DNA of 64,000 nt from a phage, in the sequence record PZ151149.1; one strand, written 5' to 3'. This document shows positions 4,818-45,448 of the stretch, in pieces. A model generated the notes under the pieces. The model worked only from the letters and a program-made list of their open reading frames with translations. It made no database searches and was not told the DNA's origin. Positions within the stretch are counted from its first letter, which is position 1. Each line of letters starts with the position of its first letter. A program made the position numbers and the translations under genes.

Positions 4818-4846
4818 ATTATAGGGGAATCGACTTAGTTTGTCAA
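4818..4846 (-). promoter_or_regulatory. sigma70-type early promoter upstream of gene 43 (TTGACA-17-TATAAT) embedded in an inverted repeat
   Basis: Exact -35 and -10 hexamers on minus strand; flanked by ATAGGGG/CCCCTAT inverted repeat. Confidence 0.5.
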
Positions 4847-4867
4847 TACCCCTATCCCATCAGTATC

Positions 4868-5230
4868 TTATCGCCCGATCTGATATTTCTCGATCAGAGT
4901 CCACTCTTCTTTCTGTTTAAAAGACAGTACACGGAAATTATTAACTTCGGTAGTTTCAAAATCACTATCAATCAGGGTACACAGATTCCACTGCGCAAGA
5001 AGTTTTGCAATGTTATTACGGCGCAATTCATCTTCCCACGTCATCTTAACACTACGACCATCTAATTTCAACAACTCCTTGAAATGAACGATGTAATAAC
5101 GCCCCTTCTTCTGGAGAATATGACAAGACTGATACAGCGTCTTGTCTCGATTGTTGGCAATGCCGCAGCGGGTTAAAGTCTCCTTAATTTTAAGGAAGTT
5201 TTCAGGATTAATCAAATTAATTTCAATCAT
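4868..5230 (-). CDS. regA: RegA translational repressor
   Basis: 120 aa; strong identity to T4 RegA (MIEI..LKKPE.FLK.KETLTR.GIANN.DK.LYQSCHILQKKG.YYIVHFKE). Confidence 0.9.
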   Translation of the reverse strand: MIEINLINPENFLKIKETLTRCGIANNRDKTLYQSCHILQKKGRYYIVHFKELLKLDGRSVKMTWEDELRRNNIAKLLAQWNLCTLIDSDFETTEVNNFRVLSFKQKEEWTLIEKYQIGR

Positions 5231-5231
5231 T

Positions 5232-5810
5232 TTACCACCTTTCTATAATCTTTTTAAGTCGTTTCCTTTCTGTCTGATTCTTAGTAACACCCGCCAAAAG
5301 TTCATCGGTCGCATACGGTTTAATGTGCTTCAATAACTTGTCCATATATCCCTTTTCATTAGCCAAATCGAGATAAAATCGGGCGTCATCCATATTTACA
5401 CAATATGCTTTCGCCACTGCCATTAAAACCAATTTTTGGTCCAATTCTTCTGTTAGTTTAGCCCATTTACCGTATCGTTTCCCCTTAGAAATACTCTGTA
5501 AGAGATAATCAAAGTGCATTTGATCTGGGAGGCCATGACCGATTAAATTCATCACATACGCGCTATATAGACAATCTGCGTGCTGGGAAAGAGCGGTGTT
5601 AATCCATCTCTGGTTATATGCAGAATTGTTTCCCACATTAACGCGCTGTTTATCTAAGGTGATATGATCCATCAGAGCAAATAATGCATTGTCGGTTTTC
5701 TCGGTGAATGTGTCCGCTAATTCAGACACTTTTTCCCAATCACGAGAGCGCCATGCAATTTCATGCTCGTTTAATTGTGTATCATCTTCACCGAAAAATT
5801 GACCTAACAT
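5232..5810 (-). CDS. 62: Clamp loader small subunit gp62
   Basis: 192 aa; synteny regA-62-44 and sequence similarity to T4 gp62 (QLNEH..AW.S.DW, KGKRYGKWAKL). Confidence 0.85.
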   Translation of the reverse strand: MLGQFFGEDDTQLNEHEIAWRSRDWEKVSELADTFTEKTDNALFALMDHITLDKQRVNVGNNSAYNQRWINTALSQHADCLYSAYVMNLIGHGLPDQMHFDYLLQSISKGKRYGKWAKLTEELDQKLVLMAVAKAYCVNMDDARFYLDLANEKGYMDKLLKHIKPYATDELLAGVTKNQTERKRLKKIIERW

Positions 5811-6784
5811 TATACGAACTCCAATTCAACCATTAATTGCATTAACAAAAAGACAATGTGAATCTCTTTATCAGCCGCGTGTGCAAACATCTGATTATTT
5901 TCACCGATGATCTCAGTGAGACGAATAATCGACGCTGGCTTAACTTGAGTATATAACTCATTATAAAGTTTCTTGACAAATTGAGCGTATGTATTGGTAT
6001 ATCGTGGCGCAAGTTTACGCACATTAGCAAACTGTTTAGTTTTAAGTGCTTCCACCACATCGGTTACTTCGGTATTGCTACTTTCGATAACCATGCTCAA
6101 TACGCCAGCATCAATTTTACCGTGTTTTGCGTAACGGTCCAAAAGTTTCATTACGCGCCGGAAGTCTGGGAAATTTTGCTTAACCAGTTCCGCTAATACT
6201 CGCATCTCTTCTACTGGCACACCTTCTTTATCAAGAATTGCTTTACACCGGACGATCATTTCTTTCATCATGCGAAGCTGATCATCTTTAGTCGGAGATC
6301 CAAACGTGATGGGGTCAAATCTAGATCGCAACGCTGGGATAATACCTTCTAGATCATTTGCTGTAATGATGAACGTCACATTGTTTGAGTATGCCTCAGA
6401 GAAACTACGCAAGTGTCTTTGAGCATCAGCCAGCCCCGCTCGGTCATACTCATCGATAATAACAACTTTGCCTTTTTCTCTTTTTTCTTCATCGAGCGAT
6501 ACACTCTGCGCAAAGCGTGTAATCTCATCGCGGATAAAATCAATCTTACAATCTGCGCCGTTAACAAACAGATAATCAACACCCACATCTTCGCAAAGCG
6601 CCTTAGCAACGGTTGTTTTACCAGTACCCGGCGATGGGCTATGCAGGATCATAGAAGGGATTCGGCCTTGCTTAACAATCTGCGCGAAGATCTTTTTATC
6701 TGCTTCCGGCAGAATACATTCAGAAATTGATTTCGGACGGTATTTCTGTTCCCACTGAAACTCATTTTCATTAACACTCAGCAT
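5810..6784 (-). CDS. 44: Clamp loader ATPase gp44 (AAA+)
   Basis: Walker A SPSPGTGKTTVAKAL, high identity to T4 gp44; ATG at 6784 with GAGGTGA SD. Confidence 0.9.
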   Translation of the reverse strand: MLSVNENEFQWEQKYRPKSISECILPEADKKIFAQIVKQGRIPSMILHSPSPGTGKTTVAKALCEDVGVDYLFVNGADCKIDFIRDEITRFAQSVSLDEEKREKGKVVIIDEYDRAGLADAQRHLRSFSEAYSNNVTFIITANDLEGIIPALRSRFDPITFGSPTKDDQLRMMKEMIVRCKAILDKEGVPVEEMRVLAELVKQNFPDFRRVMKLLDRYAKHGKIDAGVLSMVIESSNTEVTDVVEALKTKQFANVRKLAPRYTNTYAQFVKKLYNELYTQVKPASIIRLTEIIGENNQMFAHAADKEIHIVFLLMQLMVELEFV

Positions 6785-6807
6785 ATAATCACCTCTCACA
6801 AATTACA

Positions 6808-6837
6808 TCATTAAAACGGGGAGTATTTACACTCCCC
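6808..6837 (-). terminator. Hairpin GGGGAGU-loop-ACUCCCC followed by U-rich tract between genes 45 and 44 (possible attenuator)
   Basis: 7-bp GC-rich stem then GUUUUAAUGA on minus strand. Confidence 0.35.
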
Positions 6838-6850
6838 CACAAACATTATA

Positions 6851-7537
6851 TTAGTCGGTGTAGCTGGAGTCAAGGTCACACGCGATCATATAAGATACGG
6901 TTTCACTTGCCAGCCATACAGCTTTACGGCGAGTGAAGCTCAATTTGTAATCGCCGAAGTCAGTAGCAACCAGTTTCATATTATCTTTACGAATAAAGAA
7001 ATGGAAGTCGGCGGTTCCGGCATATTCGCCCATGTCAAGACAAAACATCTCATTAGGATTATTTTTGTCAATCTCTTCCCAACCTTTGATCATCAGACGA
7101 CCATCAATCGGTAGAAACTCAAGGCGATCCACTTTAAGCTGATTGCTCATTTTCATAAGCTGTTTCAGATCGTCGTTGCTCAGTTCGTAATCTACATCGC
7201 TTGCAGGTGGAGTAACTCGGCCTTTCGGTGATACGATAGCAGCAGCACTAGCACCAGGGTAATTAATTTTCAGACGATCATTAGACACACGAATGTTACC
7301 AGTGCGGTCATCAACCGTAATATCTGCTTCATCGCCTACCAGATTCAGAATACCCAGGAAAGAGTTAAGATCATAGATCCCGATTTCGTGTTCCAGTTCT
7401 TGATTCAGAGTCGCTTCACCATATACAACGTTTGTCATGTTTTTGGTGATCAGGACGTTTCCTTTTTTCAGGATGATACCTGGGTTAATAGCGGAAAAGT
7501 TTTTAAGGATCGCAACAGTTTCTTTAGTTAGTTTCAT
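6851..7537 (-). CDS. 45: Sliding clamp gp45
   Basis: High identity to T4 gp45 (MKL.K.T.A.LKNF..INSGI.LK); ATG at 7537 with AAGGTGA SD (longest ORF starts at TTG 7543). Confidence 0.9.
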   Translation of the reverse strand: MKLTKETVAILKNFSAINPGIILKKGNVLITKNMTNVVYGEATLNQELEHEIGIYDLNSFLGILNLVGDEADITVDDRTGNIRVSNDRLKINYPGASAAAIVSPKGRVTPPASDVDYELSNDDLKQLMKMSNQLKVDRLEFLPIDGRLMIKGWEEIDKNNPNEMFCLDMGEYAGTADFHFFIRKDNMKLVATDFGDYKLSFTRRKAVWLASETVSYMIACDLDSSYTD

Positions 7538-7577
7538 ATTCAAATCACCTTATCATGTTAATCAATTAATCAATTAA

Positions 7578-11373: not shown

Positions 11374-11619
11374 TTACATACTCCACGATTCACGAGCAAT
11401 AACATTCTGGGTAATATCAGCAACCTTACGGGATACGATGTTTGTTAGCCCCTCTTTGGTGATATTTTCACGATCAAATGGGATTTCGTCATGAGTCCAT
11501 AAACCATAGTTAGACCGAAATGATAGCATATACTGACCATCTCGCACAACCTCAAATACATGGATCTTAGTGAATTTCGACAAACCTTCGTTGATTTCTT
11601 TCAGTGCATTAGTAATCAT
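11374..11619 (-). CDS. hypothetical protein
   Basis: ATG at 11619 with GGAGG SD. Confidence 0.45.
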   Translation of the reverse strand: MITNALKEINEGLSKFTKIHVFEVVRDGQYMLSFRSNYGLWTHDEIPFDRENITKEGLTNIVSRKVADITQNVIARESWSM

Positions 11620-11640
11620 AACAACCTCCAATCAATTTTT

Positions 11641-11668
11641 AGAGAGTATAACGGGGATTTCTCCCCGC
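11641..11668 (-). terminator. Hairpin CGGGGAGAAAUCCCCG downstream of gene 47
   Basis: 6-bp GC stem with 4-nt loop; weak U tract. Confidence 0.35.
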
Positions 11669-11673
11669 GTCAA

Positions 11674-12699
11674 CTAACTTTTTGCGTTATTTACTTCGGC
11701 TAAAAGTTCATCAGAAATACGCTTGACCGCCGCAAGTTCTTCCGGTTCTAGGTTTTGTTCTTCCAGATATTCATAGACCATCTGAATAGTGCTTTTAACT
11801 TCAATAACACCTGTTTCCTGTGATGCGCTACTCTCCAGCTTATGGACCACTTTTAGCTTGTGTACAACGGCCTCTAACGCGCTTTCTAACTTAGTTAATC
11901 CATTATCAGCGACCGTTGCGATAAGACGCACACTAAGCCCTTTAAAGCGTTCTACATCGATTTTATCATCTGACGGGTAAGTGATACGCACATGATAAGT
12001 TTTGTCATTCTGAATAAACTCTTTTTTGTGTGTATCGGTATCGAATACCCAAAAACCACGCGGATCGTTTTCGTCACCCGCCGTTAGTGTGTATGGTGTA
12101 CCAATATATGTTACGTTACCGCCATCACTGATAGTATGAAAGTGACCCGAAAACACTTCACGGTATTTCTTTAGGAAGTCCGCGCTATAACCTTCGGATT
12201 TTAACCCTTTATAGAAATAGTAGCCAGACAATTCCCAATGGCCTACACAATATTCGCTGAATGAATTTTGAATAAACTCTAAAACCTCTGATTTATTATC
12301 ATCACAAAACCACGGGAACAGATCGAACGATACCCCATCAAAGGTAACTGTTTCCGGCTTATCAATGACCTTAATGCAATCATACTGGCTTAACACTTCA
12401 CGCGGCGCGTTAGGCTGGATCTTATTGCGCTTAAACATATCATGATTCCCGACCGTGATATAACAAGTAATGCCAGCCTCTTCCAGTAATGGGATGACCT
12501 TAGTACGGTTAAATTTCATGGTTTCATGGGTAATTGCTTTTCGGCAATCAAACCAATCCCCTGTTTGAATCCATGTCTTAATATTATGCTCTTTGGAGTA
12601 TTCAACCGCTTTCTTGATGGTATCAAGAATATACTCATGCACCCACGGATCATCGCCACCGATACCAGTATGCAGATCACCTAAAAGCAAAATTTTCAT
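11674..12699 (-). CDS. 47: Recombination endonuclease subunit gp47 (Mre11/SbcD-like phosphoesterase)
   Basis: N-terminal LLGDLH metallophosphatase motif; identity to T4 gp47; 341 aa. Confidence 0.9.
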   Translation of the reverse strand: MKILLLGDLHTGIGGDDPWVHEYILDTIKKAVEYSKEHNIKTWIQTGDWFDCRKAITHETMKFNRTKVIPLLEEAGITCYITVGNHDMFKRNKIQPNAPREVLSQYDCIKVIDKPETVTFDGVSFDLFPWFCDDNKSEVLEFIQNSFSEYCVGHWELSGYYFYKGLKSEGYSADFLKKYREVFSGHFHTISDGGNVTYIGTPYTLTAGDENDPRGFWVFDTDTHKKEFIQNDKTYHVRITYPSDDKIDVERFKGLSVRLIATVADNGLTKLESALEAVVHKLKVVHKLESSASQETGVIEVKSTIQMVYEYLEEQNLEPEELAAVKRISDELLAEVNNAKS

Positions 12700-12789
12700 A
12701 GTCTCTTCCTCTCTTCGTTTTCGATGCTCTCACTATATCACAGAAAAATAAAAAGGGAAACCCTTTTCAGAGTCTCCCTTATAAAGCCA

Positions 12790-16539: not shown

Positions 16540-17364
16540 TTACCAACCTCGCTCTTTACCAATCAAAAATTCAACTTCACGACGTTTAATGTCTTCTTGA
16601 AGGTCTTTAATCTTCTGGCGATCTTGCATGATTTCATCCATCTTGTCAAGTGCTGTAATGAAGTCATCGAAACGTTCAAAGGTTTTACCTTCATTTGCTT
16701 CGCCAAATTTAACCATTGTCAGGCCGTAACGACTACTAAACAGACGTTTCAACTGTCCAACGATTTTAGAATCAGTGGTTATAACTTCCAATTCTTCTAC
16801 TTCACGAAAGAATTTTCTATCAGAATCAATAAACCAGCTAGTTCCTTTATGGTCTCTATCTTCGGTTGCGCTCATTAGAGTATGGTCTTTACCATCAATT
16901 TCAATTACATCAATTTGCCCACATGGACTAACATTTTTAACAGTAAAAGGTCTATAATTTATTGCTCGTGCAATAACATAATTAAGGTTAGATACGTTTT
17001 CAGCATAATGACAGAAGTCGGTCATAGCCTTATCATCTTTCCAAGTATAAGTTTTACCAACTTCCCATTTCTGGGGAACTTCTTCAACTTCACGAAAGAA
17101 TTTTCTATCAAATGGACTAAACAAATATGTTGACTTCCAAATGTCTTTTCCTGTAGCAGTTTTCGCCGTATGATAAACACCGTCTAGCTCTATTGCATCA
17201 ATCCAACCGTTACCCTCGATCTCGATGATGGTAAATGGCTTGTCACCAATAGCTGCACTAATATCGCTGTTAAGTGGAGAAAGAACACCTTCTCCGTTAG
17301 TAATAAACTCAGTTTTAGCGTTTTCGTCTTTCCAAGTGTAAGTTTTACCAATTTCCCATTTCAT
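16540..17364 (-). CDS. Member of expanded paralogous domain family (two tandem repeats + coiled-coil tail)
   Basis: Two internal copies: MKWEIGKTYTWKDENAKTEF...IELDGVYHT...DRKFFREVEEV and QKWEVGKTYTWKDDKAMTDF...IEIDGKDHT...DRKFFREVEELE. Confidence 0.65.
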   Translation of the reverse strand: MKWEIGKTYTWKDENAKTEFITNGEGVLSPLNSDISAAIGDKPFTIIEIEGNGWIDAIELDGVYHTAKTATGKDIWKSTYLFSPFDRKFFREVEEVPQKWEVGKTYTWKDDKAMTDFCHYAENVSNLNYVIARAINYRPFTVKNVSPCGQIDVIEIDGKDHTLMSATEDRDHKGTSWFIDSDRKFFREVEELEVITTDSKIVGQLKRLFSSRYGLTMVKFGEANEGKTFERFDDFITALDKMDEIMQDRQKIKDLQEDIKRREVEFLIGKERGW

Positions 17365-17376: not shown

Positions 17377-17862
17377 TTAACCGATTTTATCAAGTTCGTT
17401 TAACGCTTTCTCTGCTTCCTGTATAGCTTGCACCCTTTCCGGCATTTTGTCAAGAAAATCTTTCAACTCTTCAAAACTGGAGATATGACGCAAGGCGTTA
17501 GCACCGATAGCCGCATGTGATTTGCATTCAAAGCGGATTTTATAATTATCCATAGCCAATTTGAGAAGATCAATTAGATCATGTTCATGACCAGGCAATA
17601 AAACTTCTTTGAAGCACGCTCGGTCGGCATCGGAAAACCATATATTATCACCAACATCGATAGAACTAATATAATCCCCTTCGTGATTATAGATTGAACG
17701 TACATTACCCCAACGGTCTACCGTAGCGACAGTAAATGGTTTATCTAGATATGTAAACACACCATCAATATTAGGTTTTTGTTCGTAACGCCAACCATCA
17801 CGCAAAATACGCTTTTCGTCCTCACCAACCAACTTATATGTCTTCCCTTCTTCCCATTTCAT
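17377..17862 (-). CDS. Member of expanded paralogous domain family
   Basis: MKWEEGKTYKL...DADRACFKEV; start at ATG 17862. Confidence 0.6.
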   Translation of the reverse strand: MKWEEGKTYKLVGEDEKRILRDGWRYEQKPNIDGVFTYLDKPFTVATVDRWGNVRSIYNHEGDYISSIDVGDNIWFSDADRACFKEVLLPGHEHDLIDLLKLAMDNYKIRFECKSHAAIGANALRHISSFEELKDFLDKMPERVQAIQEAEKALNELDKIG

Positions 17863-17866
17863 AATA

Positions 17867-18394
17867 TCATCTCTCATTTTTGATACGTGATTCTAATTGG
17901 ATCATACGGTCGCGCGTTTGCTTATATTCGCGGATAGCACCGATTCGGCTAGGCATACCATCCAGTACGCTCTTAATACCTTCTAGGGTAGTGATTTTAG
18001 CAATGCTATTATGCAATCCTGTCTTATCGATCAACTGAATGTCGTAGGCTTCCATAAGCAGACCCAGACGTTCTAAAGTTAGGTCTTCTTCTTTTTCTTC
18101 CGATTCTGGAATCTTAGGTTCAATAGTAACTTCGGTAAAGAAACGACGCTCACCCGACCAAAACCACACGCCGGAACAGCCAATAGGGGATTCTTTTAAC
18201 GTCATAGAGTCGAAATTACTACCAATAATAGTAATTTCTCTAACATCACCATCATCATCAAGGTCTTCTACCCTAAACGGGCGACCAGCCAACAAGTCAA
18301 CAATACATCTGTTAATAGACGACGAAAATTTAGTCAGTTCGGCTTTCGACGCTTCGCATTCAATCTTGTAAGTTTTACCAACTTCCCATTCCAT
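17867..18394 (-). CDS. Member of expanded paralogous domain family
   Basis: MEWEVGKTYKIECEASKAEL...GERRFFTEV; ATG at 18394 with GAGGTGA SD. Confidence 0.6.
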   Translation of the reverse strand: MEWEVGKTYKIECEASKAELTKFSSSINRCIVDLLAGRPFRVEDLDDDGDVREITIIGSNFDSMTLKESPIGCSGVWFWSGERRFFTEVTIEPKIPESEEKEEDLTLERLGLLMEAYDIQLIDKTGLHNSIAKITTLEGIKSVLDGMPSRIGAIREYKQTRDRMIQLESRIKNER

Positions 18395-18908: not shown

Positions 18909-19125
18909 ATTCAATTACCCCGAACTCGTTTACAATCTGCGCTTTATAGTAACCGCCGCGAGATGCTAATAGATAAGCTGGGCTTAGGTATTCGTATTCA
19001 CGGATTTCTACTTGTGCGTTTTCAGTTTCCCAAATCAGTAAAGTCCACATATTTGATTCTCCTGTAAAGTTGTATCTCGTCTTGATGAATATAGTATAGG
19101 GGATCTCGCGATCCCCGTCAAGCAT
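18898..19125 (-). CDS. hypothetical protein
   Basis: 75-aa ORF. Confidence 0.4.
   Translation of the reverse strand: MLDGDREIPYTIFIKTRYNFTGESNMWTLLIWETENAQVEIREYEYLSPAYLLASRGGYYKAQIVNEFGVIEYEF
19093..19121 (-). promoter_or_regulatory. Early-type promoter TTGACG-17-TATACT with hairpin-forming spacer
   Basis: Spacer GGGATCGCGAGATCCCC is self-complementary; lies just upstream of 18898..19125 ORF. Confidence 0.4.
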
Positions 19126-19653
19126 TTATTTTAAATTTTTTCGAATGTATTCAGACCATTCCTTCCCCGTCATTTCGGACCCATTCTGGAAACTGAAATA
19201 TTCATACGGCATCGAGTCAAGATAAAACAGGATCATACATCGCGCCATATAATACCAATCACGATTAAAGTAAACTACGTTATCACCAGTACCATCAACC
19301 CCTTTATCATAACCATCGCGGGTACGGGCTACCCATTGAATAGTATCATTTTTCTCACGGATAGTAACAGGTTCCCAATATCCAGCACATCCAGCATGAC
19401 CACACGAACAAGTAAGGAAGTATTGGCCTTTTGCTTTGTTGTCATCCCATTCACGATGGATTGGTTTGATCTCGTGAAACAGTGCCAAGCAATCATGATT
19501 ATGCAACACTGGCTTACCATCAATCAATGCATGGAATGTATACAAACGACCAGTAGACAAATAGCTATCCTCACGCTCACAGAGTTCAATAGCAATCTTT
19601 TTAGCTTGTTCTTTGTGCCGTTGTGCTTTACGCTTACGGTTTAATGATTTCAT
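19126..19653 (-). CDS. hypothetical protein (Cys-rich CSCGHAGCAGYW segment)
   Basis: ATG at 19653 with GAGGTGA SD. Confidence 0.5.
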   Translation of the reverse strand: MKSLNRKRKAQRHKEQAKKIAIELCEREDSYLSTGRLYTFHALIDGKPVLHNHDCLALFHEIKPIHREWDDNKAKGQYFLTCSCGHAGCAGYWEPVTIREKNDTIQWVARTRDGYDKGVDGTGDNVVYFNRDWYYMARCMILFYLDSMPYEYFSFQNGSEMTGKEWSEYIRKNLK

Positions 19654-19670: not shown

Positions 19671-20216
19671 TCAAAGGTCGCGATATAGCACATTATGAAA
19701 ATGAGAACTTGCATTACCAATATTGTAGATAATAAATTCTTCATCCGGCGCTTGCGCTACAAATTGAGTATGAGCAACCGCTACAACCTTAAAAATACGA
19801 TCCGTAATCTTGTGTTTAATTTCTGCTCCTACTTCCATAGGAACATATTCATGTGTTTCTGTTTCAGTCGCAAAACAGCTATCTTCTTCATAAGCACGAA
19901 CAAATCGATCGCAATCAGTACGCTTAACAAATTCAAGAGTATATAATTCTCGTGAATTGTCGGTATAGACCAATACAGAATTATTCTGATAGCGAATCAC
20001 ATACAGGTTATTATCATCGTCAAGTACACAAAAGCTACGGATTTGTGTTCCTTCGCCTTTACTCCAGCAGATATTAACCACGGTTCCTCTAATAAAAAAA
20101 CTTTCCTTTAAATTAAAACTAGCCAATGTGCTAGCGTGCATTTTAACAACAACACCATCACCAATTTCCAGTTTACGAAGTTTAACTTCTTTGCTCAGTA
20201 CACAAAACATCATCAT
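19671..20216 (-). CDS. hypothetical protein
   Basis: 181-aa ORF starting MMMF. Confidence 0.5.
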   Translation of the reverse strand: MMMFCVLSKEVKLRKLEIGDGVVVKMHASTLASFNLKESFFIRGTVVNICWSKGEGTQIRSFCVLDDDNNLYVIRYQNNSVLVYTDNSRELYTLEFVKRTDCDRFVRAYEEDSCFATETETHEYVPMEVGAEIKHKITDRIFKVVAVAHTQFVAQAPDEEFIIYNIGNASSHFHNVLYRDL

Positions 20217-20244
20217 GTTGTCCTCTCGTTGTTTTCGATGTGAG

Positions 20245-20272
20245 CATTATACATTAGCTAATCAGGTTGTCA
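20245..20272 (-). promoter_or_regulatory. sigma70-type early promoter (TTGACA-16-TATAAT)
   Basis: Exact hexamers on minus strand upstream of 19671..20216. Confidence 0.45.
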
Positions 20273-20280
20273 ACACCCCA

Positions 20281-20311
20281 AAACGAAAAAGCCGACCCTT
20301 TCGGATCGGCT
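20281..20311 (-). terminator. Rho-independent terminator after nrdD
   Basis: Minus-strand hairpin AGCCGAUCC-GAAA-GGGUCGGCU followed by UUUUUCGUUUU. Confidence 0.6.
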
Positions 20312-28749: not shown

Positions 28750-28790
28750 TTTGATTCTCCTTAAGAAGTGTGTTTCGTTTTGATGTGTGT

Positions 28791-28819
28791 AGTATAGGGG
28801 ATACGTGATCCCCTGTCAA
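28791..28819 (-). promoter_or_regulatory. Early promoter TTGACA-17-TATACT with hairpin-forming spacer
   Basis: Spacer GGGGATCACGTATCCCC. Confidence 0.45.
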
Positions 28820-28827
28820 CAACTTTT

Positions 28828-29652: not shown

Positions 29653-29670
29653 AATATAATCCTCAATTAA

Positions 29671-29874
29671 TTACACTTCCCAGGCTTCTTTGCTAAGAAA
29701 ACACCATTTATACTCAGGAGAATAACCTTTAATCGGTACGCCAGCTTTGCGTAATTCCTGCGTTTCAACAAGATAATCATGCCCATACGGTCGACCTTCC
29801 ACGATGATAGGAAGTTCAACGCCTTTCATGAAAGAATATCCGCCATTGTCAAAAATTTCAATTTTAATTTTCAT
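29671..29874 (-). CDS. hypothetical protein, tandem paralog B
   Basis: MKIKIEIFDNGGYSFMKGVELPIIV... Confidence 0.5.
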   Translation of the reverse strand: MKIKIEIFDNGGYSFMKGVELPIIVEGRPYGHDYLVETQELRKAGVPIKGYSPEYKWCFLSKEAWEV

Positions 29875-30552: not shown

Positions 30553-30843
30553 TCAAATGGTAGTTTTGCGAAGATGGTCATTACATGCTTTTAATGCATC
30601 AGTCGAGGTGTCATAGCGAGTATTATCATAGCACCAGTAACCATCTGTCAACTGATAAATTAATCCATCCTTTTTAGCTTCGATGAAAGACAATTCTTTG
30701 AAAGTTTCTACTTTCTTTGCTGATACTCCACGATCGCGGCGTTTATACAGTTTAGCTAAAATGCGTTCGGCTTGTTCCTCTTTATCGCCAGACAGATCCC
30801 AGATAATACTGCGGATATGTTTGATTAATTGTTCAGTGGTCAT
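30553..30843 (-). CDS. hypothetical protein
   Basis: ATG at 30843 preceded by conserved leader AGGAGAATCAACA. Confidence 0.5.
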   Translation of the reverse strand: MTTEQLIKHIRSIIWDLSGDKEEQAERILAKLYKRRDRGVSAKKVETFKELSFIEAKKDGLIYQLTDGYWCYDNTRYDTSTDALKACNDHLRKTTI

Positions 30844-30929
30844 TGTTGATTCTCCTAGAAAGTGTCGTGCTTCGATGTGTGTATTGTGCAATAACACCGG
30901 ATCGCTGTCAACACTTTCTAAGAAAAATT

Positions 30930-31214: not shown

Positions 31215-31561
31215 GCCAGACCTCGCAAAACACTAATAGCATAATCATGCTGGTTATTCATAATATCAATTGCGTTGTGATAGCGAGCTAAACCATCAAG
31301 GATAAATTCTTGTTTATCCTGTTTCAGTTTGGTATCACGCGCAGCCATAAGAGCATCAAGAACAGGTCCAAAGTGATTATCTAATTCATCTTCGGTTGCA
31401 ATGTTTCCTATTGCCTCGTCGATCCGTGATTCTAATGCTTGCTTTTCGTTGATCACTTGCTGGGTATATTCCAACACATCAAGAATATCGCGGGTAACGT
31501 CGCCATGATAAGGTATTCCCGCGTGAATATGATCAATTAATCGCTGAATATCAATGTTCAA
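31211..31561 (-). CDS. hypothetical protein
   Basis: 116-aa ORF; apparent TTG start after GAGGAGGG. Confidence 0.4.
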   Translation of the reverse strand: MNIDIQRLIDHIHAGIPYHGDVTRDILDVLEYTQQVINEKQALESRIDEAIGNIATEDELDNHFGPVLDALMAARDTKLKQDKQEFILDGLARYHNAIDIMNNQHDYAISVLRGLA

Positions 31562-31880
31562 TTGTAACCCTCCTCTGAAAGTACATCCCAGATCGTTGCG
31601 TCAAGGTGCATTAAATTCCACATAATAGAGTCATAACTACCGAAGCCAGAAGTAAAAATTACATCACACTGACGATAGGTCTTATGAAAATCGGTAGCTG
31701 TCTCTGCATCAATCGGCATATCGTCACCTGAAAGCACCAGACAGAATCATAACCCTGTTAGCCGTTGGCGCTTGCTTAGTCTTTTCAGCATATTTTTCGA
31801 TGATCCGTTTTGCCTTTTCTTCTTTGATACGTCCAGACCAAATCCGGTTTCGGTATTGATTCATAATAATTTCAATCACA

Positions 31881-32090
31881 TCATTTTGCATTCTTCACGG
31901 TCTCCATAATTGTTTTGTAAGCCAGTTTAAGATGATCACCGAAAAACTTTGCGGTGTTACCCTTCGGATCGCGGAGCATGGTTTCTACGATCTCATCGGC
32001 AGTAACAATTTCTCCTTTCTTTGCTGCATGTTCTACCATATACTTCAAAGTTTCTTCGGAAGCAAGTGCTGCCGCTACTGGATTAATCAT
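31881..32090 (-). CDS. hypothetical protein
   Basis: 69-aa ORF preceded by conserved leader and promoter. Confidence 0.45.
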   Translation of the reverse strand: MINPVAAALASEETLKYMVEHAAKKGEIVTADEIVETMLRDPKGNTAKFFGDHLKLAYKTIMETVKNAK

Positions 32091-32120
32091 TTTTGATTCT
32101 CCTTTGTTGTCGATGTGTGC

Positions 32121-32149
32121 ATTATGCTATACACTATTCCGGTTGTCAA
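32121..32149 (-). promoter_or_regulatory. Early promoter TTGACA-17-CATAAT
   Basis: On minus strand upstream of 31881..32090. Confidence 0.45.
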
Positions 32150-32157
32150 CACCTAAA

Positions 32158-32186
32158 AACAAAAAAGCCACCCTTTCGGATGGCTT
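32158..32186 (-). terminator. Rho-independent terminator
   Basis: Minus-strand hairpin AGCCAUCC-GAAA-GGGUGGCU + UUUUUUG. Confidence 0.6.
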
Positions 32187-32418
32187 TTGATTATATTTTA
32201 TTCACGTCCATTTGTATAGTAGTGTTTGAATCGACCTTTGCTAAACTAGTTAAACATAGTAACCAATTCACCATCCCTTTCCAATGATAACCCTTCCTCG
32301 TCTTAGACGGGTCTTCCGATTCGGCAGTAATTGAACACGCGAAAGTATGAGGAAGCCAAATAGTTGTGTTAATGCTAGTATTCTTTTACTTATGGTATGC
32401 ATCCCACGGTGACTAACA

Positions 32419-35293: not shown

Positions 35294-35884
35294 TCAATAG
35301 CGTTTAGTTTTAAGAATGCCTTTACTCTTTAGATGGTTAGCTTTTTTTAGTACGTCATCAGCATAACCTAAACCGGCTTTATAGTTCCACCCTGCATTGT
35401 AAGAAGCTAGCGCGAGTCGGATATTACCGTTTCGAACATCCAGCCAGTATGCTAACTCATCCATCGCGTAGAATGCAGAAACCTCGCGATTCATGATAAA
35501 GTTGATAGTCTGGCGATCACTCATTTTAACACCGCGCTTTGCATTTTTCGCTTTCACCGTTTTAAGGTAATTTTGAAATAATCCATAAGCATGATGATTT
35601 TTCTTTGGTGATAAGTTTGCACCCGCGCTTGATTCTTGCCATGCGATACCCGCCAAGATGTGACCTAAACCCTTTCCGTTATAGCGAATATTCGGATGGT
35701 CCTTTTTCAACTTACCGCTTTTCTCGAATTGCTCGCCGTATTGATAGGCGAAATGTAAATTATCTAGTTGGTGTGCTGTAAAGTTGTCTATCGGCGCTTT
35801 TTTGATCGGTGCGCTAGTCGATGCGTGTGTAGCACCAACGGCTAGTGACAGACTCAATACTATCGCTTTTAGAACTTTTAACAT
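35294..35884 (-). CDS. Secreted lytic transglycosylase (SLT-domain) protein
   Basis: Signal peptide then GIAWQESS ... YGLFQ ... SYNAG motifs of family-1 lytic transglycosylases. Confidence 0.6.
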   Translation of the reverse strand: MLKVLKAIVLSLSLAVGATHASTSAPIKKAPIDNFTAHQLDNLHFAYQYGEQFEKSGKLKKDHPNIRYNGKGLGHILAGIAWQESSAGANLSPKKNHHAYGLFQNYLKTVKAKNAKRGVKMSDRQTINFIMNREVSAFYAMDELAYWLDVRNGNIRLALASYNAGWNYKAGLGYADDVLKKANHLKSKGILKTKRY

Positions 35885-35969
35885 TAATTTCTCCTGTTTG
35901 GCTTAACTTTCTGATTCCATAATATAGCCCTATCACCAGAAAGTCAAGCATTAATTTAACAAATTTCCA

Positions 35970-36392
35970 TTATTGGTCTACCCTCAAAACAACAGCCGAC
36001 ATTTTACCCGCAAGTCGTTTTGGATTCTCTATAATCATTCGGCAGCATAGACCGTGATACGGTTTACCCTCTTCGATTAGATCTACTGTCATTCCGATCC
36101 ACATGTTACCGTCAGTAATTTCTAATCGATTAGGTCGGTCTTCCATTTTCAGGAAGTCGAAGATCTCCGGCAAACGAGTTTCTACCTTATTGAATAGTTC
36201 CATTGTCTTATGTTCATCGATATGACGATCGGTTAATCTGTCGATCATATGTGGACTAAAGCGAATGAAAATATACTCGCCGTAACCATCATTCAAGCAC
36301 TTTTCTTTGATCTGCGCATTGGTTTTGCGCATTTCGGTTTCGAAGAATCTGCGCAGCTTACTACGGCGAACATGTACGTTAATTGTTTCCAT
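35970..36392 (-). CDS. hypothetical protein
   Basis: ATG at 36392 with AAGGAG SD. Confidence 0.45.
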   Translation of the reverse strand: METINVHVRRSKLRRFFETEMRKTNAQIKEKCLNDGYGEYIFIRFSPHMIDRLTDRHIDEHKTMELFNKVETRLPEIFDFLKMEDRPNRLEITDGNMWIGMTVDLIEEGKPYHGLCCRMIIENPKRLAGKMSAVVLRVDQ

Positions 36393-36393
36393 T

Positions 36394-36732
36394 TTATTCT
36401 CCTTTCTTGAACAAATTGCGAAGCCAGTATACAAACGGGATTTCTTTAAACTTGAATTTCTCTATAGTTAATTCTTTAGTAGCAAGATGAATACCATAAG
36501 AATCATGTGTCACGATATGCCATTTTCTATAGTCCAAATGTGAACAACCATTTGAATCTAGGTTAATAATAGTTTCTCGCTCACTAGGATTGTTTTTCCA
36601 CGATTTTGTAATCGGATCGCACATAATTCGACCTAGCGTACCATGAATAATCTCGCATTTGTAAACCTTTCCGGCAGTGATATAAGCGCAACCGTCATAG
36701 TCGGTATAAACAAACACTTCTTTAACACTCAT
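36394..36732 (-). CDS. hypothetical protein, tandem paralog 1 of 3
   Basis: GCSHLDYRKWHIV motif shared with next two ORFs; ATG at 36732. Confidence 0.45.
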   Translation of the reverse strand: MSVKEVFVYTDYDGCAYITAGKVYKCEIIHGTLGRIMCDPITKSWKNNPSERETIINLDSNGCSHLDYRKWHIVTHDSYGIHLATKELTIEKFKFKEIPFVYWLRNLFKKGE

Positions 36733-36763
36733 TTTAATACTCCTTTGTAGTTTCGATGGGGGT

Positions 36764-36792
36764 ATATTACTACCCCCGTTTTGACGTGTCAA
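36764..36792 (-). promoter_or_regulatory. Early promoter with stem-loop (TTGACA-17-TAATAT)
   Basis: GGGGGUAGUAAUAUACCCCC hairpin spans -10. Confidence 0.45.
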
Positions 36793-37038
36793 CTACTTTT
36801 TCAAGAATTTTTTGAGTACATTCCAAAGACCTTTATTCTCGGCTTGTTTTGGTTCTTCGATCAGTGTCCATGTTCGACCGTCTAAGTGTGCACAATTTTT
36901 AAGGCAAATAAAAATCTGGTGTCCCTTATCATCACGGATATAACCACTATTCGCAAATCTTTCATGTGGTGTATATTCATACAGTGTATTCGGTGTAATA
37001 TACTTGCGGTTACTATAAGGTGTCGTTACATATTTCAT
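36793..37038 (-). CDS. hypothetical protein, tandem paralog 2 of 3
   Basis: YEYTPHERF..GYIRDDKGHQIFICL..CAHLDGRTWTL. Confidence 0.45.
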   Translation of the reverse strand: MKYVTTPYSNRKYITPNTLYEYTPHERFANSGYIRDDKGHQIFICLKNCAHLDGRTWTLIEEPKQAENKGLWNVLKKFLKK

Positions 37039-37949: not shown

Positions 37950-37962
37950 AATTAAACCCTCA

Positions 37963-38493
37963 TTAGTATTTTACGTTACGTCGAACGCCTTTTCGAATCT
38001 GACAAATAGCAGACGGTGAAACATTATATTTTCTTGCAAGTTCTACACCCTTCATATGGGGAGAAGATAAAATCTCTTCCACTTGGTCGTCGGTAAGTTT
38101 TGCGTTTCCGTGGTTCTCTCCCCAATTGTTGTTTAATCCTTCTTCCTTCGCATGAACAAGATTTCGGGTATCTGTCGTCCATTCAAGATTATAAAGGTCA
38201 TAGTTTTGTTTGTTTCCATCCTTATGATTAACTACACGGTAGTTATTTGGATTCGGAATAAACGCAACCGCCATAGCTTTATGCATGTTCACGGTTTTTC
38301 TAAATCCATCCGGCTTATAACATACTGTAAATTTAGAATAACCAGTTTTACCATAAACACTAATATAATTTCCGGTCTCTGTATTTCTAACCCTACCATG
38401 AGAGCTAATCTCAAATTGAGTGTAGGGCAACAGCGCATCAATCACTTTCCATTCTTCGACAGGATGGTCATCACAATATCTTTTAATCATCAT
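37963..38493 (-). CDS. Free-standing HNH homing endonuclease
   Basis: EISSHGRVRN (NUMOD4-like) and NHKDGNKQNYDLYNLEW (HNH) motifs. Confidence 0.7.
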   Translation of the reverse strand: MMIKRYCDDHPVEEWKVIDALLPYTQFEISSHGRVRNTETGNYISVYGKTGYSKFTVCYKPDGFRKTVNMHKAMAVAFIPNPNNYRVVNHKDGNKQNYDLYNLEWTTDTRNLVHAKEEGLNNNWGENHGNAKLTDDQVEEILSSPHMKGVELARKYNVSPSAICQIRKGVRRNVKY

Positions 38494-38502: not shown

Positions 38503-38534
38503 TAAAAATAAAGCCAACCCTTTCGGATTGGCTT
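38503..38534 (-). terminator. Rho-independent terminator
   Basis: Minus-strand hairpin AAGCCAAUCC-GAAA-GGGUUGGCUU + UUAUUUUUAU. Confidence 0.55.
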
Positions 38535-40834: not shown

Positions 40835-40895
40835 AGAAAGCCCTCCAGTTAGCTAATTTAGTGCGGGTAGTACATTCCCCTACCCGCTTTGTTAA

Positions 40896-41648: not shown

Positions 41649-41666
41649 AATATAATCCTCACACAG

Positions 41667-41867
41667 TTAATCAGTATAGTCAATAATCTTGCACATTACA
41701 ATTGAAAGAACAAAGACCGCAACCCACATATAGATCCCAGCAATCAATGCTACTTCAATATCACAATATCCAAGAAGTACAACAGGAATAAAAACAAACA
41801 TACAGACCAGCGCAATGAAACTAGCATATACGCTCGAAAATATGATGGCACTATTATTAATTTTCAT
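41667..41867 (-). CDS. small hydrophobic membrane protein
   Basis: 66 aa. Confidence 0.4.
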   Translation of the reverse strand: MKINNSAIIFSSVYASFIALVCMFVFIPVVLLGYCDIEVALIAGIYMWVAVFVLSIVMCKIIDYTD

Positions 41868-42059: not shown

Positions 42060-42386
42060 TTAGAAAGAAACAGTTTTCAAGAAATCCAGATTTTCAGTAC
42101 CGAAAACAGAAAAGTAGTGTTTTCCTTTTTCGGTTTTAGAGAAAGCGATTGTCTTCTCTACATGGTGACGGAAGCCAGACAGACGATCACCCAGGTCAAG
42201 GCGGCAAGCGTAAGTAGTGCCGTTTTCGAAAGTAACCTCGATTTGAGTTTTGTCATATTCGCTTTCATAGGCTTTTGCTGCCGCGTCCTGTGCTTTACGC
42301 TCGAAGTCTTCGAAGTGGAATACTTCGTTTGCGTTAGCGAATACAGAAGATTCAGAGAAGATAACTTTAACAGATACTGGTTTCAT
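42060..42386 (-). CDS. hypothetical protein
   Basis: 108 aa; preceded by promoter and conserved leader. Confidence 0.5.
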   Translation of the reverse strand: MKPVSVKVIFSESSVFANANEVFHFEDFERKAQDAAAKAYESEYDKTQIEVTFENGTTYACRLDLGDRLSGFRHHVEKTIAFSKTEKGKHYFSVFGTENLDFLKTVSF

Positions 42387-42428
42387 TTTGATACTCCTTA
42401 GTAGTTCGTGTTTCGTTTCGATGGGTGT

Positions 42429-42457
42429 ATTATGATATACACCCTATCGTGTGTCAA
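42429..42457 (-). promoter_or_regulatory. Early promoter TTGACA-17-CATAAT
   Basis: Minus-strand hexamers upstream of 42060..42386. Confidence 0.45.
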
Positions 42458-42465
42458 CAACTTTT

Positions 42466-42654
42466 TTAGTCTTTTTTCATAATTTCTAGGGCAGTTTCTA
42501 CCGCACCTTTCCAACCTTCCCACATAATGGACATAGTGATGAAGGTAAAGCACCCGCAGGAATCAGCCTTTTTAGAAATAAACCATTCTACAAACTCTTC
42601 GCTCATACCATGCTCTTTAGCGGATTCGCGTAATTGTTCAATTTTGTCTTCCAT
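42466..42654 (-). CDS. hypothetical small protein
   Basis: 62 aa. Confidence 0.4.
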   Translation of the reverse strand: MEDKIEQLRESAKEHGMSEEFVEWFISKKADSCGCFTFITMSIMWEGWKGAVETALEIMKKD

Positions 42655-42863: not shown

Positions 42864-43091
42864 TTACAGTTGATCAGCAATGTATGCGGTGCATTTGCGG
42901 AGTTTAGCCATAGCACCACCTTTCATGTCGCTTGCGCCTACAATGTTCATGATCTCTAAGCGATCAGCCGGATTCAGTCTAGTAGCCCAGATCTGGTTAG
43001 CCAGTTCCATTTTACCCATCTGCGGTTCCATCTCAAACAGTTCACGCTCAAAGTCGATAATTTCTTTTGCTGCGTCTTTAAAGTTAATCAT
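42864..43091 (-). CDS. hypothetical small protein
   Basis: 75 aa. Confidence 0.45.
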   Translation of the reverse strand: MINFKDAAKEIIDFERELFEMEPQMGKMELANQIWATRLNPADRLEIMNIVGASDMKGGAMAKLRKCTAYIADQL

Positions 43092-43120
43092 TTTGATTCT
43101 CCCGTTTCGTTGATGGTTGT

Positions 43121-43149
43121 ATTGTAGGGGAGTTATCCTCCCCTGTCAA
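43121..43149 (-). promoter_or_regulatory. Early promoter TTGACA-17-TACAAT with hairpin-forming spacer
   Basis: Spacer GGGGAGGATAACTCCCC. Confidence 0.45.
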
Positions 43150-43157
43150 CACTTTTA

Positions 43158-43343
43158 TCAGAAATATGCAATATAGTTTGCCAGTCCTACAGAGTCATCA
43201 TTCGGCATTGCTTTTACTGCCAGTTCAAACCCTGCTTCAACTTTCTGTTTAGCGGATTCTTCGTTATAACCCCAAATTACCAGAATAGCTACTACGTTTT
43301 CTTTGCTTACTGCTTTCAGTGCTTTAGTGATGCGACGTGCCAT
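43158..43343 (-). CDS. hypothetical small protein
   Basis: 61 aa. Confidence 0.4.
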   Translation of the reverse strand: MARRITKALKAVSKENVVAILVIWGYNEESAKQKVEAGFELAVKAMPNDDSVGLANYIAYF

Positions 43344-43389
43344 AATTTGATTCTCCGTTTAAGAAAGTGTGTTTCGTTTCGATGGGTGT

Positions 43390-43418
43390 ATTATGCTATA
43401 GGCGGGGTCTGGTGTCAA
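43390..43418 (-). promoter_or_regulatory. Early promoter TTGACA-17-CATAAT
   Basis: Minus strand; followed by conserved leader. Confidence 0.45.
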
Positions 43419-43444
43419 CAACTTTTTTCAAAAAAATTTAGGCA

Positions 43445-43471
43445 ATAAAAAAGCCACTCCGAAGAGTGGCT
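43445..43471 (-). terminator. Rho-independent terminator
   Basis: Minus-strand hairpin AGCCACUC-UUCG-GAGUGGCU + UUUUUUAUU. Confidence 0.55.
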
Positions 43472-43621
43472 TATAGGGGAAGGTAGCGAATCTTCCTTGT
43501 CTCCAACCTGCTAGCGGCCTAGCAAGTGAATGCTTTAGCGTACCGGATCACCCCATACGCTGCAATAAATGCGGCTAGGTGACGTCCAAATCATTCTAAC
43601 CGCGCTGTCTTTAGTTCACTA

Positions 43622-44541: not shown

Positions 44542-44734
44542 TAGACACCCCACGACGGTCAATTTCAAAAACTTTCTTATCACCAACGAAGCATGTCACA
44601 ACTGCCTCGTTGACTTCCGCAAATTGTTGTGTTACCCACTTAAGGTCAGATCGAAACAATGTTTTGTTAATAACAAATGTTTTACCGATCTTATCCTTAC
44701 CCATAAATTTTGCGTTAACCATATCCAATTCCAT
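44531..44734 (-). CDS. hypothetical small protein
   Basis: 67 aa. Confidence 0.4.
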   Translation of the reverse strand: MELDMVNAKFMGKDKIGKTFVINKTLFRSDLKWVTQQFAEVNEAVVTCFVGDKKVFEIDRRGVSNDH

Positions 44735-44743
44735 ATTATAGCC

Positions 44744-44902
44744 TTATTTGCTAATCGCTAAACCTAATCCGAAGAGAGCACCCGACGCTACAGTATACCC
44801 GAAAGTTTCAAATGCAGTAAAGATATCTAAGCCACCAGCTAACAGAGTTGCAGTAAACAGAGTACCAGCTACGAACATAAAAGTTTTACCGATAAATTTC
44901 AT
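44744..44902 (-). CDS. possible small membrane protein (52 aa, below ORF-track cutoff)
   Basis: MKFIGKTFMFVAGTLFTATLLAGGLDIFTAFETFGYTVASGALFGLGLAISK; preceded by AGGAGAATCAAG leader and promoter. Confidence 0.35.
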   Translation of the reverse strand: MKFIGKTFMFVAGTLFTATLLAGGLDIFTAFETFGYTVASGALFGLGLAISK

Positions 44903-44933
44903 CTTGATTCTCCTTTCGTTTGTTTGTGGGGGT

Positions 44934-44962
44934 ATCTTACTACCCCCGTTTCATGTTGTCAA
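44934..44962 (-). promoter_or_regulatory. Early promoter with stem-loop (TTGACA-17-TAAGAT)
   Basis: GGGGGUAGUAAGAUACCCCC hairpin spans -10. Confidence 0.45.
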
Positions 44963-44968
44963 CTGTTT

Positions 44969-45346
44969 TTAAGAAAATTTTACTTCGTCTACAATGTCTT
45001 TCATGACATTGATTTCCATTCCGGTCAGAACACGTTGGAACATGTGCTGCACATACGCTTTCAGGTATTCATTTGATGGCTTACTATCGAAAGTCTTTTT
45101 AGTGTAGTAGTCATCACCGAAAGCTACTGTAATTACATTTTCGTCGTCGTTCCAAGCGATATAAGCAAATTTGCCGTTATCCCAGAAGCGAGCACTAATT
45201 GCTACTTTTGTTGAATCGAATCCTACTTCGCTGTGAGATTCAAGAACTACTTGCGTACCAGTTTCTTTATGAATGTAGTAGCGGGATACTAAGTCAAAGT
45301 TACGGGTGTAGTGACATTCGAATTTATCTTTAAACATCATCATCAT
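44969..45346 (-). CDS. hypothetical protein
   Basis: Starts MMMMFKDKFE at ATG 45346 with AGGAG SD. Confidence 0.5.
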   Translation of the reverse strand: MMMMFKDKFECHYTRNFDLVSRYYIHKETGTQVVLESHSEVGFDSTKVAISARFWDNGKFAYIAWNDDENVITVAFGDDYYTKKTFDSKPSNEYLKAYVQHMFQRVLTGMEINVMKDIVDEVKFS

Positions 45347-45383
45347 TTTGATTCTCCTAAGTGTGTTTCGTTTCGATATGTGC

Positions 45384-45412
45384 ATTATGCTATAGTCGTT
45401 TATGGTTGTCAA
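45384..45412 (-). promoter_or_regulatory. Early promoter TTGACA-17-CATAAT
   Basis: Minus strand upstream of 44969..45346. Confidence 0.45.
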
Positions 45413-45417
45413 CAACT

Positions 45418-45448
45418 AAAAACAAAAAACCCCGAAAAATTTTCGGGG
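45418..45448 (-). terminator. Rho-independent terminator after 57B
   Basis: Minus-strand hairpin CCCCGAAAAUUUUUCGGGG + UUUUUUGUUUUU. Confidence 0.6.

Follow-up and report, generated by a model that had tools for sequence, protein, structure and literature searches.

A 64,000-nt stretch of phage DNA (sequence record PZ151149.1; the whole stretch is called the window below) raises the question of why so many of its minus-strand genes are preceded by the same arrangement of promoter, stem-loop, and leader. The original prediction, made for positions 4818–45448, was that more than 15 copies of a "PeSL-like" module lie there, and that they can drive early transcription and also serve as homology patches for gene shuffling. 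The modules are the already published PeSL (promoter-early stem-loop) early-promoter cassettes, in a new close relative of phage RB49. What is new here is confined to details, and no new kind of element is involved. With a probability of roughly 0.9, they are punctuation cassettes in which three or four signals are packed together, with the following roles.

The first signal would be a near-consensus sigma-70 promoter, used by the unmodified host RNA polymerase immediately upon infection. The second would be a single G+C-clamped hairpin that forms in read-through RNA of the upstream gene, which it would terminate or attenuate; this hairpin would be placed in the promoter spacer, across the −10 element, or downstream of it, and otherwise a classic terminator shortly before the −35 element would take its part. 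A short, unstructured, A/C-rich leader would then lead from near CAUCGAAAC to a strong ribosome-binding site, in which GGAGAAUCAA(A) may double as a RegB/S1 cleavage site that shuts off early messages. Finally, because the modules are alike over tens of bases, they may serve as homology patches, with two modules recombining so that the gene or genes between them are deleted or inserted and one chimeric module remains.

Occurrence of the Module in the Window

Pieces of the window of 4 and 24 kb matched 59 phage records, all of which are RB49-like coliphages (genus Krischvirus). The window is 95–98% identical to RB49, phi1, JSE, G2494, ELT3, and Whisky, with GenBank records used for all comparisons with relatives, and no identical record is among the matches. 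Minus-strand genes from about 1 to 50.4 kb, running from gene 43 to gene 2, constitute the replication, nucleotide-metabolism, and hyperplastic early region, and plus-strand genes lie beyond about 50.4 kb. An Rfam search of the window gave no match to a structured-RNA family, and the window contains no tRNA.

A loose sigma-70 scan is too noisy alone (75, 89, and 81 sites versus about 55–61 expected), and a composite pattern, TTGAC(A/G/T)-N16–18-(T/C)ANNNT-N15–52-(GGAG or GAGG)-N4–10-ATG, was used instead together with a sequence model. On the minus strand, this pattern occurs 21 times versus 0.19 ± 0.43 expected from 200 dinucleotide shuffles. Across the window, AGGAGAATCAA with at most one mismatch is found 13 times (1.75 expected), and a 20-nt hairpin with at most three mismatches four times (0 expected). 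These enrichments rule out chance or low complexity as the origin of the modules. De novo repeat finding returns mostly pieces of the module, which account for 13 of the 20 families listed and for all of the five largest.

Within 4818–45448, 19 modules fit the composite pattern and an extended −10 variant is present at 12699, giving about 20 genuine copies, in agreement with the predicted number; 16 of the 19 are located between 19 and 46 kb, among hypothetical genes of 50–200 aa. Between 20 and 22 modules score at least 10/12 for the sigma-70 −35 and −10 elements, have a 16–18 bp spacer, and point at the downstream gene. The family is not limited to the predicted range, as three modules lie outside it (929–1003 and 48040–48135 on the minus strand, and 61274–61373 on the plus strand). 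A model trained on 18 modules, by sequence only, recovers one copy that was not used in training, at 61304–61373 on the plus strand (E = 1.5e-8). One composite-pattern match, at 27046, is intragenic and lacks a hairpin, and is regarded as a chance match or a weak internal promoter.

Identity with the PeSLs of RB49 and phi1

PeSLs were defined in RB49 (51 copies) and phi1 (52 copies), with five positional subclasses; most of them lie in hyperplastic regions, where they precede small genes of unknown function (Arbiol et al., 2010; PMC2839356). Comeau et al. (2014; PMC4122927) later added T4/PST and KVP40/nt-1 to the phages with PeSLs. Six relatives (RB49, phi1, JSE, ELT3, Whisky, and OZ035808) have each of the window modules at the same position. 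The modules are therefore PeSLs in the strict sense, given the genus and the shared positions in RB49 and phi1, and not merely "PeSL-like".

A model built from the window modules only matches 11 sites in the hyperplastic region of RB49 at 118–132 kb, and its matches to RB49 PeSL211/210 (E = 2.9e-14), PeSL206/205, and PeSL194/193 have E values of 1e-11 to 1e-14. PeSL211/210 and the window module with its −35 element at 28819 are near-identical over about 90 nt, and the PeSL211/210 hairpin, GGGGATCACGTATCCCC, is the same as the window hairpin at 28796–28814; PeSL206/205 is a spacer-hairpin module too. The stem-loop of PeSL211/210 was as strong as rrnB T1 in reducing lacZ expression, a PeSL206/205 lacZ fusion gave about 13,000 Miller units, and a PeSL193/192 fusion was also assayed (PMC2839356). 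The early 5′ ends of RB49 have been mapped (Desplats, 2002, as cited in PMC1524935), and mini-circle junctions inside PeSLs have been sequenced (Arbiol et al., 2010; PMC2839356). The two roles predicted for the modules, in early transcription and in gene shuffling, coincide with those published for PeSLs. Early-promoter and terminator activity is attributed to the window modules by analogy with this RB49 literature, and the mini-circles are likewise taken from it.

The window modules share with the PeSLs of RB49 and phi1 the genus, the genome positions, the order of parts, near-identical sequence, small genes of unknown function downstream, and PeSL-bounded cassette polymorphism. No difference is categorical; the window has its own set of alleles, in which the ORF080 + g38 cassette is gone and an extra HNH-AP2 cassette with a promoter at 48107 is present. 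T4 early promoters, in contrast, have the −35 element GTTTAC instead of the TTGACA of the RB49 type, and the available sections of Nolan et al. (2006) discuss no promoter-embedded hairpins.

Anatomy of the Modules

Each module spans about 75–105 bp between two minus-strand genes and begins with an A/T-rich stretch that contains the stop codon of the upstream gene (mean A+T of 0.70 in the 20 nt upstream of the −35 element versus 0.60 for the window). Then follow TTGACA, a spacer of 16–17 nt, TAnnnT or CATAAT, a C-rich discriminator, the leader, a Shine-Dalgarno sequence, and the ATG, which is located 25–60 nt past the −10 element; the Shine-Dalgarno sequence and start codon of the downstream gene form the 3′ end. 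The A of CAUCGAAAC is the probable first base of the leader. The predicted architecture of TTGACA, spacer, −10 element, and leader was thus correct, but not the single common leader, since AGGAGAATCAA (at most one mismatch) is found in only 10 modules. All positions that had been cited are the 3′ ends of −10 hexamers of real sites.

A stable hairpin lies within the core promoter in 11 modules, four times in the spacer and seven times across the −10 element. Four modules have a GGGGA..UCCCC spacer hairpin. In the module at 43089–43161 (all modules are on the minus strand unless stated), with the −35 element at 43149, AGGGGAGGATAACTCCCCT (43126–43144) fills the 17-nt spacer (−13.6 kcal/mol, z −4.2). 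The module at 28747–28831 (−35 at 28819; model E = 1.4e-14) carries AGGGGATCACGTATCCCCT at 28796–28814, and that at 19048–19133 (−35 at 19121, TTGACG) carries GGGGATCGCGAGATCCCC at 19099–19116. In these three, predicted from the sites 43121, 28791, and 19093, the expected TTGAC(A/G)-GGGGA..TCCCC-TAnnnT is present. The fourth, at 11617–11685 (−35 at 11673), has GCGGGGAGAAATCCCCGT at 11651–11668 (z −3.1; model E = 0.02) and had been overlooked.

In seven modules, the hairpin spans the −10 element and its 3′ arm is the discriminator. These are located at 44900–44974 (−35 at 44962; hairpin GGGGGTAGTAAGATACCCCC, 44928–44947; −14.0 kcal/mol, z −3.2; leader AGGAGAATCAAG), 42384–42469 (−35 at 42457; GGGTGTATATCATAATACACCC, 42423–42444; −15.9 kcal/mol, z −5.0), 36730–36804 (−35 at 36792; hairpin 36758–36777; leader AGGAGTATTAAA), 28081–28158 (−35 at 28146; hairpin 28110–28135, with a U.G pair; z −4.25; leader GTGAGGATTATATT), 24859–24933 (−35 at 24921; hairpin 24885–24908), 23949–24023 (−35 at 24011; hairpin 23977–23996; leader GAGAGGATTATATT), and 22716–22788 (−35 at 22776; 16-nt spacer; hairpin 22743–22764; z −4.7; leader also GAGAGGATTATATT). 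The five such hairpins predicted, at 44934, 36764, 24893, 23983, and 22749, are all present, and those at 42457 and 28146 are additions to that list.

In two modules, the hairpin is downstream of the −10 element. One, upstream of gene 44 at 6782–6873 (TTGACT-17-TATAAT; −35 at 6873), has a hairpin with a U tail at 6818–6837, and the other is the out-of-range module at 929–1003 (TTGACA-16-TATAAT; −35 at 1003; hairpin 949–975).

Six modules have no in-promoter hairpin and have instead a canonical terminator that ends 5–30 nt upstream of the −35 element. The module at 45344–45449 consists of a terminator (45429–45449), TTGACA at 45407–45412, CATAAT ending at 45384, a leader ending in CATATCGAAACGAAACACACTTAGGAGAATCAAA, and an ATG at 45344–45346 (model E = 1.8e-14). 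In the module at 43341–43472 (−35 at 43418), the terminator is at 43451–43472 and the leader ends in CGGAGAATCAAATT; in that at 32088–32188 (−35 at 32149), it is at 32163–32188; and in that at 20214–20311 (TTGACA-16-TATAAT; −35 at 20273), it is at 20290–20311. The variant at 12697–12780 (site 12760), upstream of gene 47, has a terminator (12753–12780) and an extended −10 element, TGATATAGT, without a −35 element, followed by the leader CATCGAAAAC. The plus-strand module at 61274–61373 (−35 at 61314) comprises a terminator at 61274–61299, TTGACA-16-TATAAT, a leader, and an ATG, and is a close paralogue of the 20273 module.

The remaining modules depart from these arrangements. A divergent PeSL at 35882–35959 (TTGACT-17-TATTAT; −35 at 35947; model E = 1.3e-5) has a long-range stem, 35906–35944, around the spacer and −10 element (z −2.8). 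The module upstream of gene 43 at 4783–4858 (TTGACA-17-TATAAT; −35 at 4846; leader GGAGTTTATATT; model E = 2.4e-5) folds without a significant hairpin, and a chimeric PeSL at 30841–30923 (−35 at 30911) has none. The out-of-range module at 48040–48135 has two short hairpins (48110–48135) ahead of TTGACA-17-TAGATT.

An in-promoter hairpin of the predicted kind is present in 11 modules; the five minus-strand modules with an upstream terminator have none, and neither 30911 nor, to a significant degree, 4846 has a hairpin. Folding energies of the in-promoter hairpins are −10 to −16 kcal/mol, with z of −2.7 to −5.0, whereas in modules with an upstream terminator the promoter region has z about 0. 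No hairpin that overlaps the −35 element only is seen in the window modules. The four placements found agree with the definition and five subclasses of Arbiol et al. (2010; PMC2839356). Hairpins without a recognizable promoter ("terminator-only" punctuation) are also present between genes among the PeSLs, at 40863–40887, 38511–38534, and 22198–22213.

A Probable Role of the Hairpin in Sense RNA

In-promoter hairpins and upstream terminators are mutually exclusive among the modules, which suggests that they do the same job. Whether the hairpin acts as RNA or as DNA can be asked from the way its stem varies. Stem pairs of paralogous modules were tabulated by folding each copy; MAFFT put the 7-bp and 8-bp stems that span the −10 element out of register. 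Paralogous stems differ in bases and keep their pairing, with G-C, A-U, or U-A at one and the same stem position, and contain six G.U pairs and no A.C interruption. The hairpin is kept in every relative compared, with changes in 17% of loop columns versus 6% of stem columns (about 2.7-fold). Of four changes in the core stem of orthologs, three are switches between U-A and U.G (two positions in the 28146 module and one in 24921); the fourth, a G-to-T change at the −35/stem boundary of the phi1 counterpart of 19121, loses one basal pair. Because U.G pairs form only on the sense strand, the other strand having an A.C mismatch, a structure in sense RNA is favored over a DNA operator or cruciform. 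The stem-loop thus appears to be used in sense RNA, on the strength of few events.

An alternative is that the inverted repeats work in double-stranded DNA, as operators by which a dimeric phage or host protein shuts early promoters, or as cruciform or supercoil-sensitive tuners of promoter strength. Their overlap with the core promoter (spacer, −10 element, and discriminator) in 11 modules, the lack of a U-tract, and the recurrence of the TTGACA-GGGGA-N7-TCCCC-TA design in unrelated phage contigs would all fit such a role. However, the stems differ between modules and remain complementary (GGGGAG, GGGGAUC, GGGAGUA, GGGUGUAU, and GCGGUUAU), which a sequence-specific operator would not tolerate, and the switches between U-A and U.G, which make up the ortholog stem changes apart from the basal pair lost in phi1, would place an A.C mismatch on the other arm of a cruciform. 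In addition, the position of the hairpin relative to the promoter shifts from module to module, five modules have an ordinary upstream terminator in its place, and lacZ was blocked when it lay downstream of an identical hairpin that had been cloned away from a promoter (PMC2839356). A role at the DNA level is therefore very improbable.

A sense-RNA hairpin need not be a terminator. The hairpins in the spacer and across the −10 element could instead be stabilizers of RNA 3′ ends, or processing sites, that define and protect the end of the upstream message once it has been cleaved, with polymerase continuing past them. Their stems are followed by UAUACUAC or AUCGAAAC and not by a U run, the lacZ assay of Arbiol et al. 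(2010) cannot separate termination from cleavage or destabilization, and tolerance of G.U pairs on the sense strand fits any role at the RNA level. This explanation is nevertheless unlikely, as the hairpin assayed was as effective as rrnB T1 (PMC2839356), the hairpins and bona fide terminators can take each other's place, and no conserved cleavage motif lies beside the stems.

Termination or attenuation of the upstream transcript remains the preferred role for the hairpin, and several points weigh against it. Hairpins in the spacer and across the −10 element lack a U-tract and are missed by a terminator scan; the stem-loop of PeSL211/210 is the sole hairpin with measured terminator activity (PMC2839356); the published drop in lacZ could also reflect RNA cleavage; and folding gives no hairpin in module 30911 and no significant one in 4846.

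Leaders and RegB

The AGGAGAATCAA leader, with at most one mismatch, precedes the start codons at 45346, 44902, 43343, 43091, 42386, 32090, 30843, 28749, 24861, and 19050. A second conserved leader, GAGGATTATATT-ATG, is found in four modules (28083, 23951, 22718, and 4785), and other modules have other Shine-Dalgarno contexts. The start region (G)GAGGATTATATT-ATG occurs in 13 minus-strand genes altogether, those of the four modules and nine promoter-less internal genes, with start codons at 46872, 34911, 30542, 30334, 29652, 28083, 26956, 24574, 23951, 22718, 17364, 15626, and 4785. The same region also borders an ORF replacement at 41663–41864.

Half of the modules have GGAGAAUCAA(A) as their ribosome-binding site. 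Of about 21 genes led by a PeSL, 10 carry the GGAGAAUCAA leader, versus one of about 85 others, and that one is regB. The consensus of RegB/S1 targets is GGAGRAYARAA (Durand et al., 2006; PMC1702504). The AGGAGAAUCAA leader agrees with this cleavage consensus, and GGAGAAUCAAA matches it at 10 of 11 positions; a 10/11 match is seen in six leaders. The regB endoribonuclease gene is located at 35970–36403 on the minus strand (PF10715, 2.3e-48), and its start region, GGAGAATAAAA (36392–36403), contains a site, GGAGAAUAAAA, that matches the T4 RegB consensus at 11 of 11 positions. In RB49 and phi1, the start region of regB is GGATAATAAAA, with GGAU where this phage has GGAG, in agreement with the literature.

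The leaders thus resemble the RegB/S1 sites of T4-type early mRNAs in that an A-rich 7-mer comes after the GGAG of the Shine-Dalgarno sequence, in single-stranded RNA, and in the presence of a site in regB itself. They differ in having C at position 8 of the consensus, where A is strongly preferred (PMC1702504), a difference that argues against cleavage. From these sequences we infer that the GGAGAAUCAA leaders may make the first genes of PeSLs sensitive to RegB, which is proposed as the trans-acting partner of these leaders. Neither the RegB-site reading of the leader nor the G.U pattern of the sense strand is discussed in the available sections of the PeSL papers (PMC2839356 and PMC4122927). 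If the reading is correct, early genes would be split into a RegB-sensitive class, the first genes of PeSLs, and a RegB-resistant class with GAGGAUUAUAUU leaders.

Cassette Exchange and Homing Endonucleases

Exchange between PeSLs is seen at one locus, at 30843, which has three alleles with every boundary inside a PeSL. In RB49, phi1, JSE, ELT3, Whisky, and others, the order is PeSL-A, ORF080, g38 (adhesin), a terminator, PeSL-B, and ORF078; in G2494-type genomes, it is PeSL-A, ORF080, PeSL-C, and ORF078. The window and phiS (PP449093; 100% identity) have a single chimeric PeSL directly upstream of ORF078, in which the join falls in a shared AGGAGAATCAA stretch. This PeSL, the one without a hairpin, marks the junction of the deletion of the ORF080 + gp38 adhesin cassette, which is absent at 30820–30923 of the window (31279–32398 of locus L001).

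The window was aligned with seven relatives, and about 14 indel or replacement events were found, too few for statistics. Against a general role of the modules in shuffling, only one of the approximately 14 events is a clean exchange between PeSLs, and at least six are insertions of homing endonucleases; about 11 of the 14 events lie outside PeSLs, and most of these are endonuclease genes. In the window, gene 43 (DNA polymerase) is split into the frames 3577–4785 and 993–2399 by a 1.1-kb insertion at 2469–3595, in which an ORF at 2610–3470 (−) encodes a 286-aa HNH-type homing endonuclease (PHROG 12434, E = 2e-131); a Pfam search of this protein gave no match. Gene 43 is intact in RB49, phi1, ELT3, and Whisky, and is split in JSE by a partly similar insert. 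An HNH/NUMOD4 homing endonuclease gene lies at 37963–38493, between nrdC.11 and vs.6 and directly downstream of the terminator-only hairpin 38511–38534; JSE and Whisky have it too, and RB49, phi1, and ELT3 lack it.

At 47509–48042, an HNH-AP2 endonuclease gene has its own TTGACA-17-TAGATT promoter at 48107, within the module at 48040–48135; this 596-bp insertion, which lies a short way upstream of gene 3 at a TTG microhomology, is present in none of the seven relatives. A 342-aa endonuclease-family/CapR-domain gene at 48547–49575 is absent from RB49 and present in ELT3, and phi1 has an "endonuclease" gene at this site. In RB49, the HNH gene ORF040 is inserted right at the ATG of gene 47, abutting the 12699 module, and the inserts of JSE and ELT3 are endonuclease genes as well. 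An ORF swap at 41663–41864 and a tandem paralogue at 29652–29789 have ordinary gene junctions as borders.

These events raise a further possibility, that the modules resemble each other through independent selection for a strong promoter and ribosome-binding site, with genes gained and lost through homing endonucleases and illegitimate events. The single exchange between PeSLs among about 14 events, the endonuclease genes that make up the insertions at 2469–3595 (in gene 43), 37962–38488, 47509–48105, and 48549–49556, RB49 ORF040, and the inserts of JSE and ELT3, and the plain junctions around the 41663–41864 swap are all in line with this idea. However, module 28819 and RB49 PeSL211/210, which are about 80 kb apart, are alike through spacer, loop, and leader sequences without known function, every boundary of the three-allele locus at 30843 is inside a PeSL, and mini-circle junctions lie inside PeSLs (Arbiol et al., 2010). 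Independent selection is accordingly an improbable source of the likeness. Homology between modules is the preferred explanation for the exchange at 30843, and its role as a patch for shuffling, as originally proposed, appears to be real but minor in this window, where insertions of homing endonucleases outnumber the one exchange between PeSLs and are the main source of indels.

Like the "morons" of lambdoid phages and integron cassettes, small accessory genes here carry their own expression signals, and circular excised intermediates are proposed, the PeSL mini-circles being comparable to integron cassettes. Unlike those systems, PeSLs have no integrase or attC, and exchange occurs via homology between regulatory cassettes; the G+C content also resembles that of the rest of the genome (PMC1524935).

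Other repeats and hairpins are present near these loci. The tandem paralogous small genes 29395–29652 and 29671–29874 are about 85% identical at their 5′ ends, and a bidirectional terminator-like hairpin (48522–48542) adjoins the gene at 48547–49575. Two further repeats correspond to an N-terminal segment shared by the ORFs 16540–17364, 17377–17862, and 17867–18394.

Wider Occurrence and Meaning

When IMG/VR was scanned for exact occurrences of the spacer-hairpin promoter, two Krischvirus contigs showed multiple copies, as expected. The same design, TTGACA-GGGGA-N7-TCCCC-TAnnnT, is present once per locus at four loci of RaK2/Munch-like jumbo phage contigs and at seven loci of metagenomic phage contigs. 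Each of these copies from outside Krischvirus is closely preceded by a stop codon and followed, 25–40 nt downstream, by a Shine-Dalgarno sequence and ATG. This suggests that the spacer-hairpin design is more widespread than is described in the available sections of the PeSL literature.

A broader proposal combines these details. The PeSL may be a three-signal unit of sense RNA, in which a promoter-embedded hairpin without a U-tract ends the upstream message, the GGAGAAUCAA leader acts as a RegB/S1 self-destruct site, and the spacer-terminator design recurs in RaK2/Munch-like and uncultured phage contigs. As a whole, this proposal is possible and still doubtful. If true, the PeSL would be no peculiarity of Krischvirus but a space-saving design of general occurrence, which may have arisen by convergence.

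A reading made from sequence alone has here recovered a real, experimentally backed cassette for regulation and recombination. The window adds one more natural PeSL-bounded cassette exchange, and this exchange involves the gp38 adhesin, a host-range gene, so that it bears on host-range change in therapy-type RB49-like phages. The RegB-site leader and the wider distribution of promoter-spacer hairpins are modest, testable leads.

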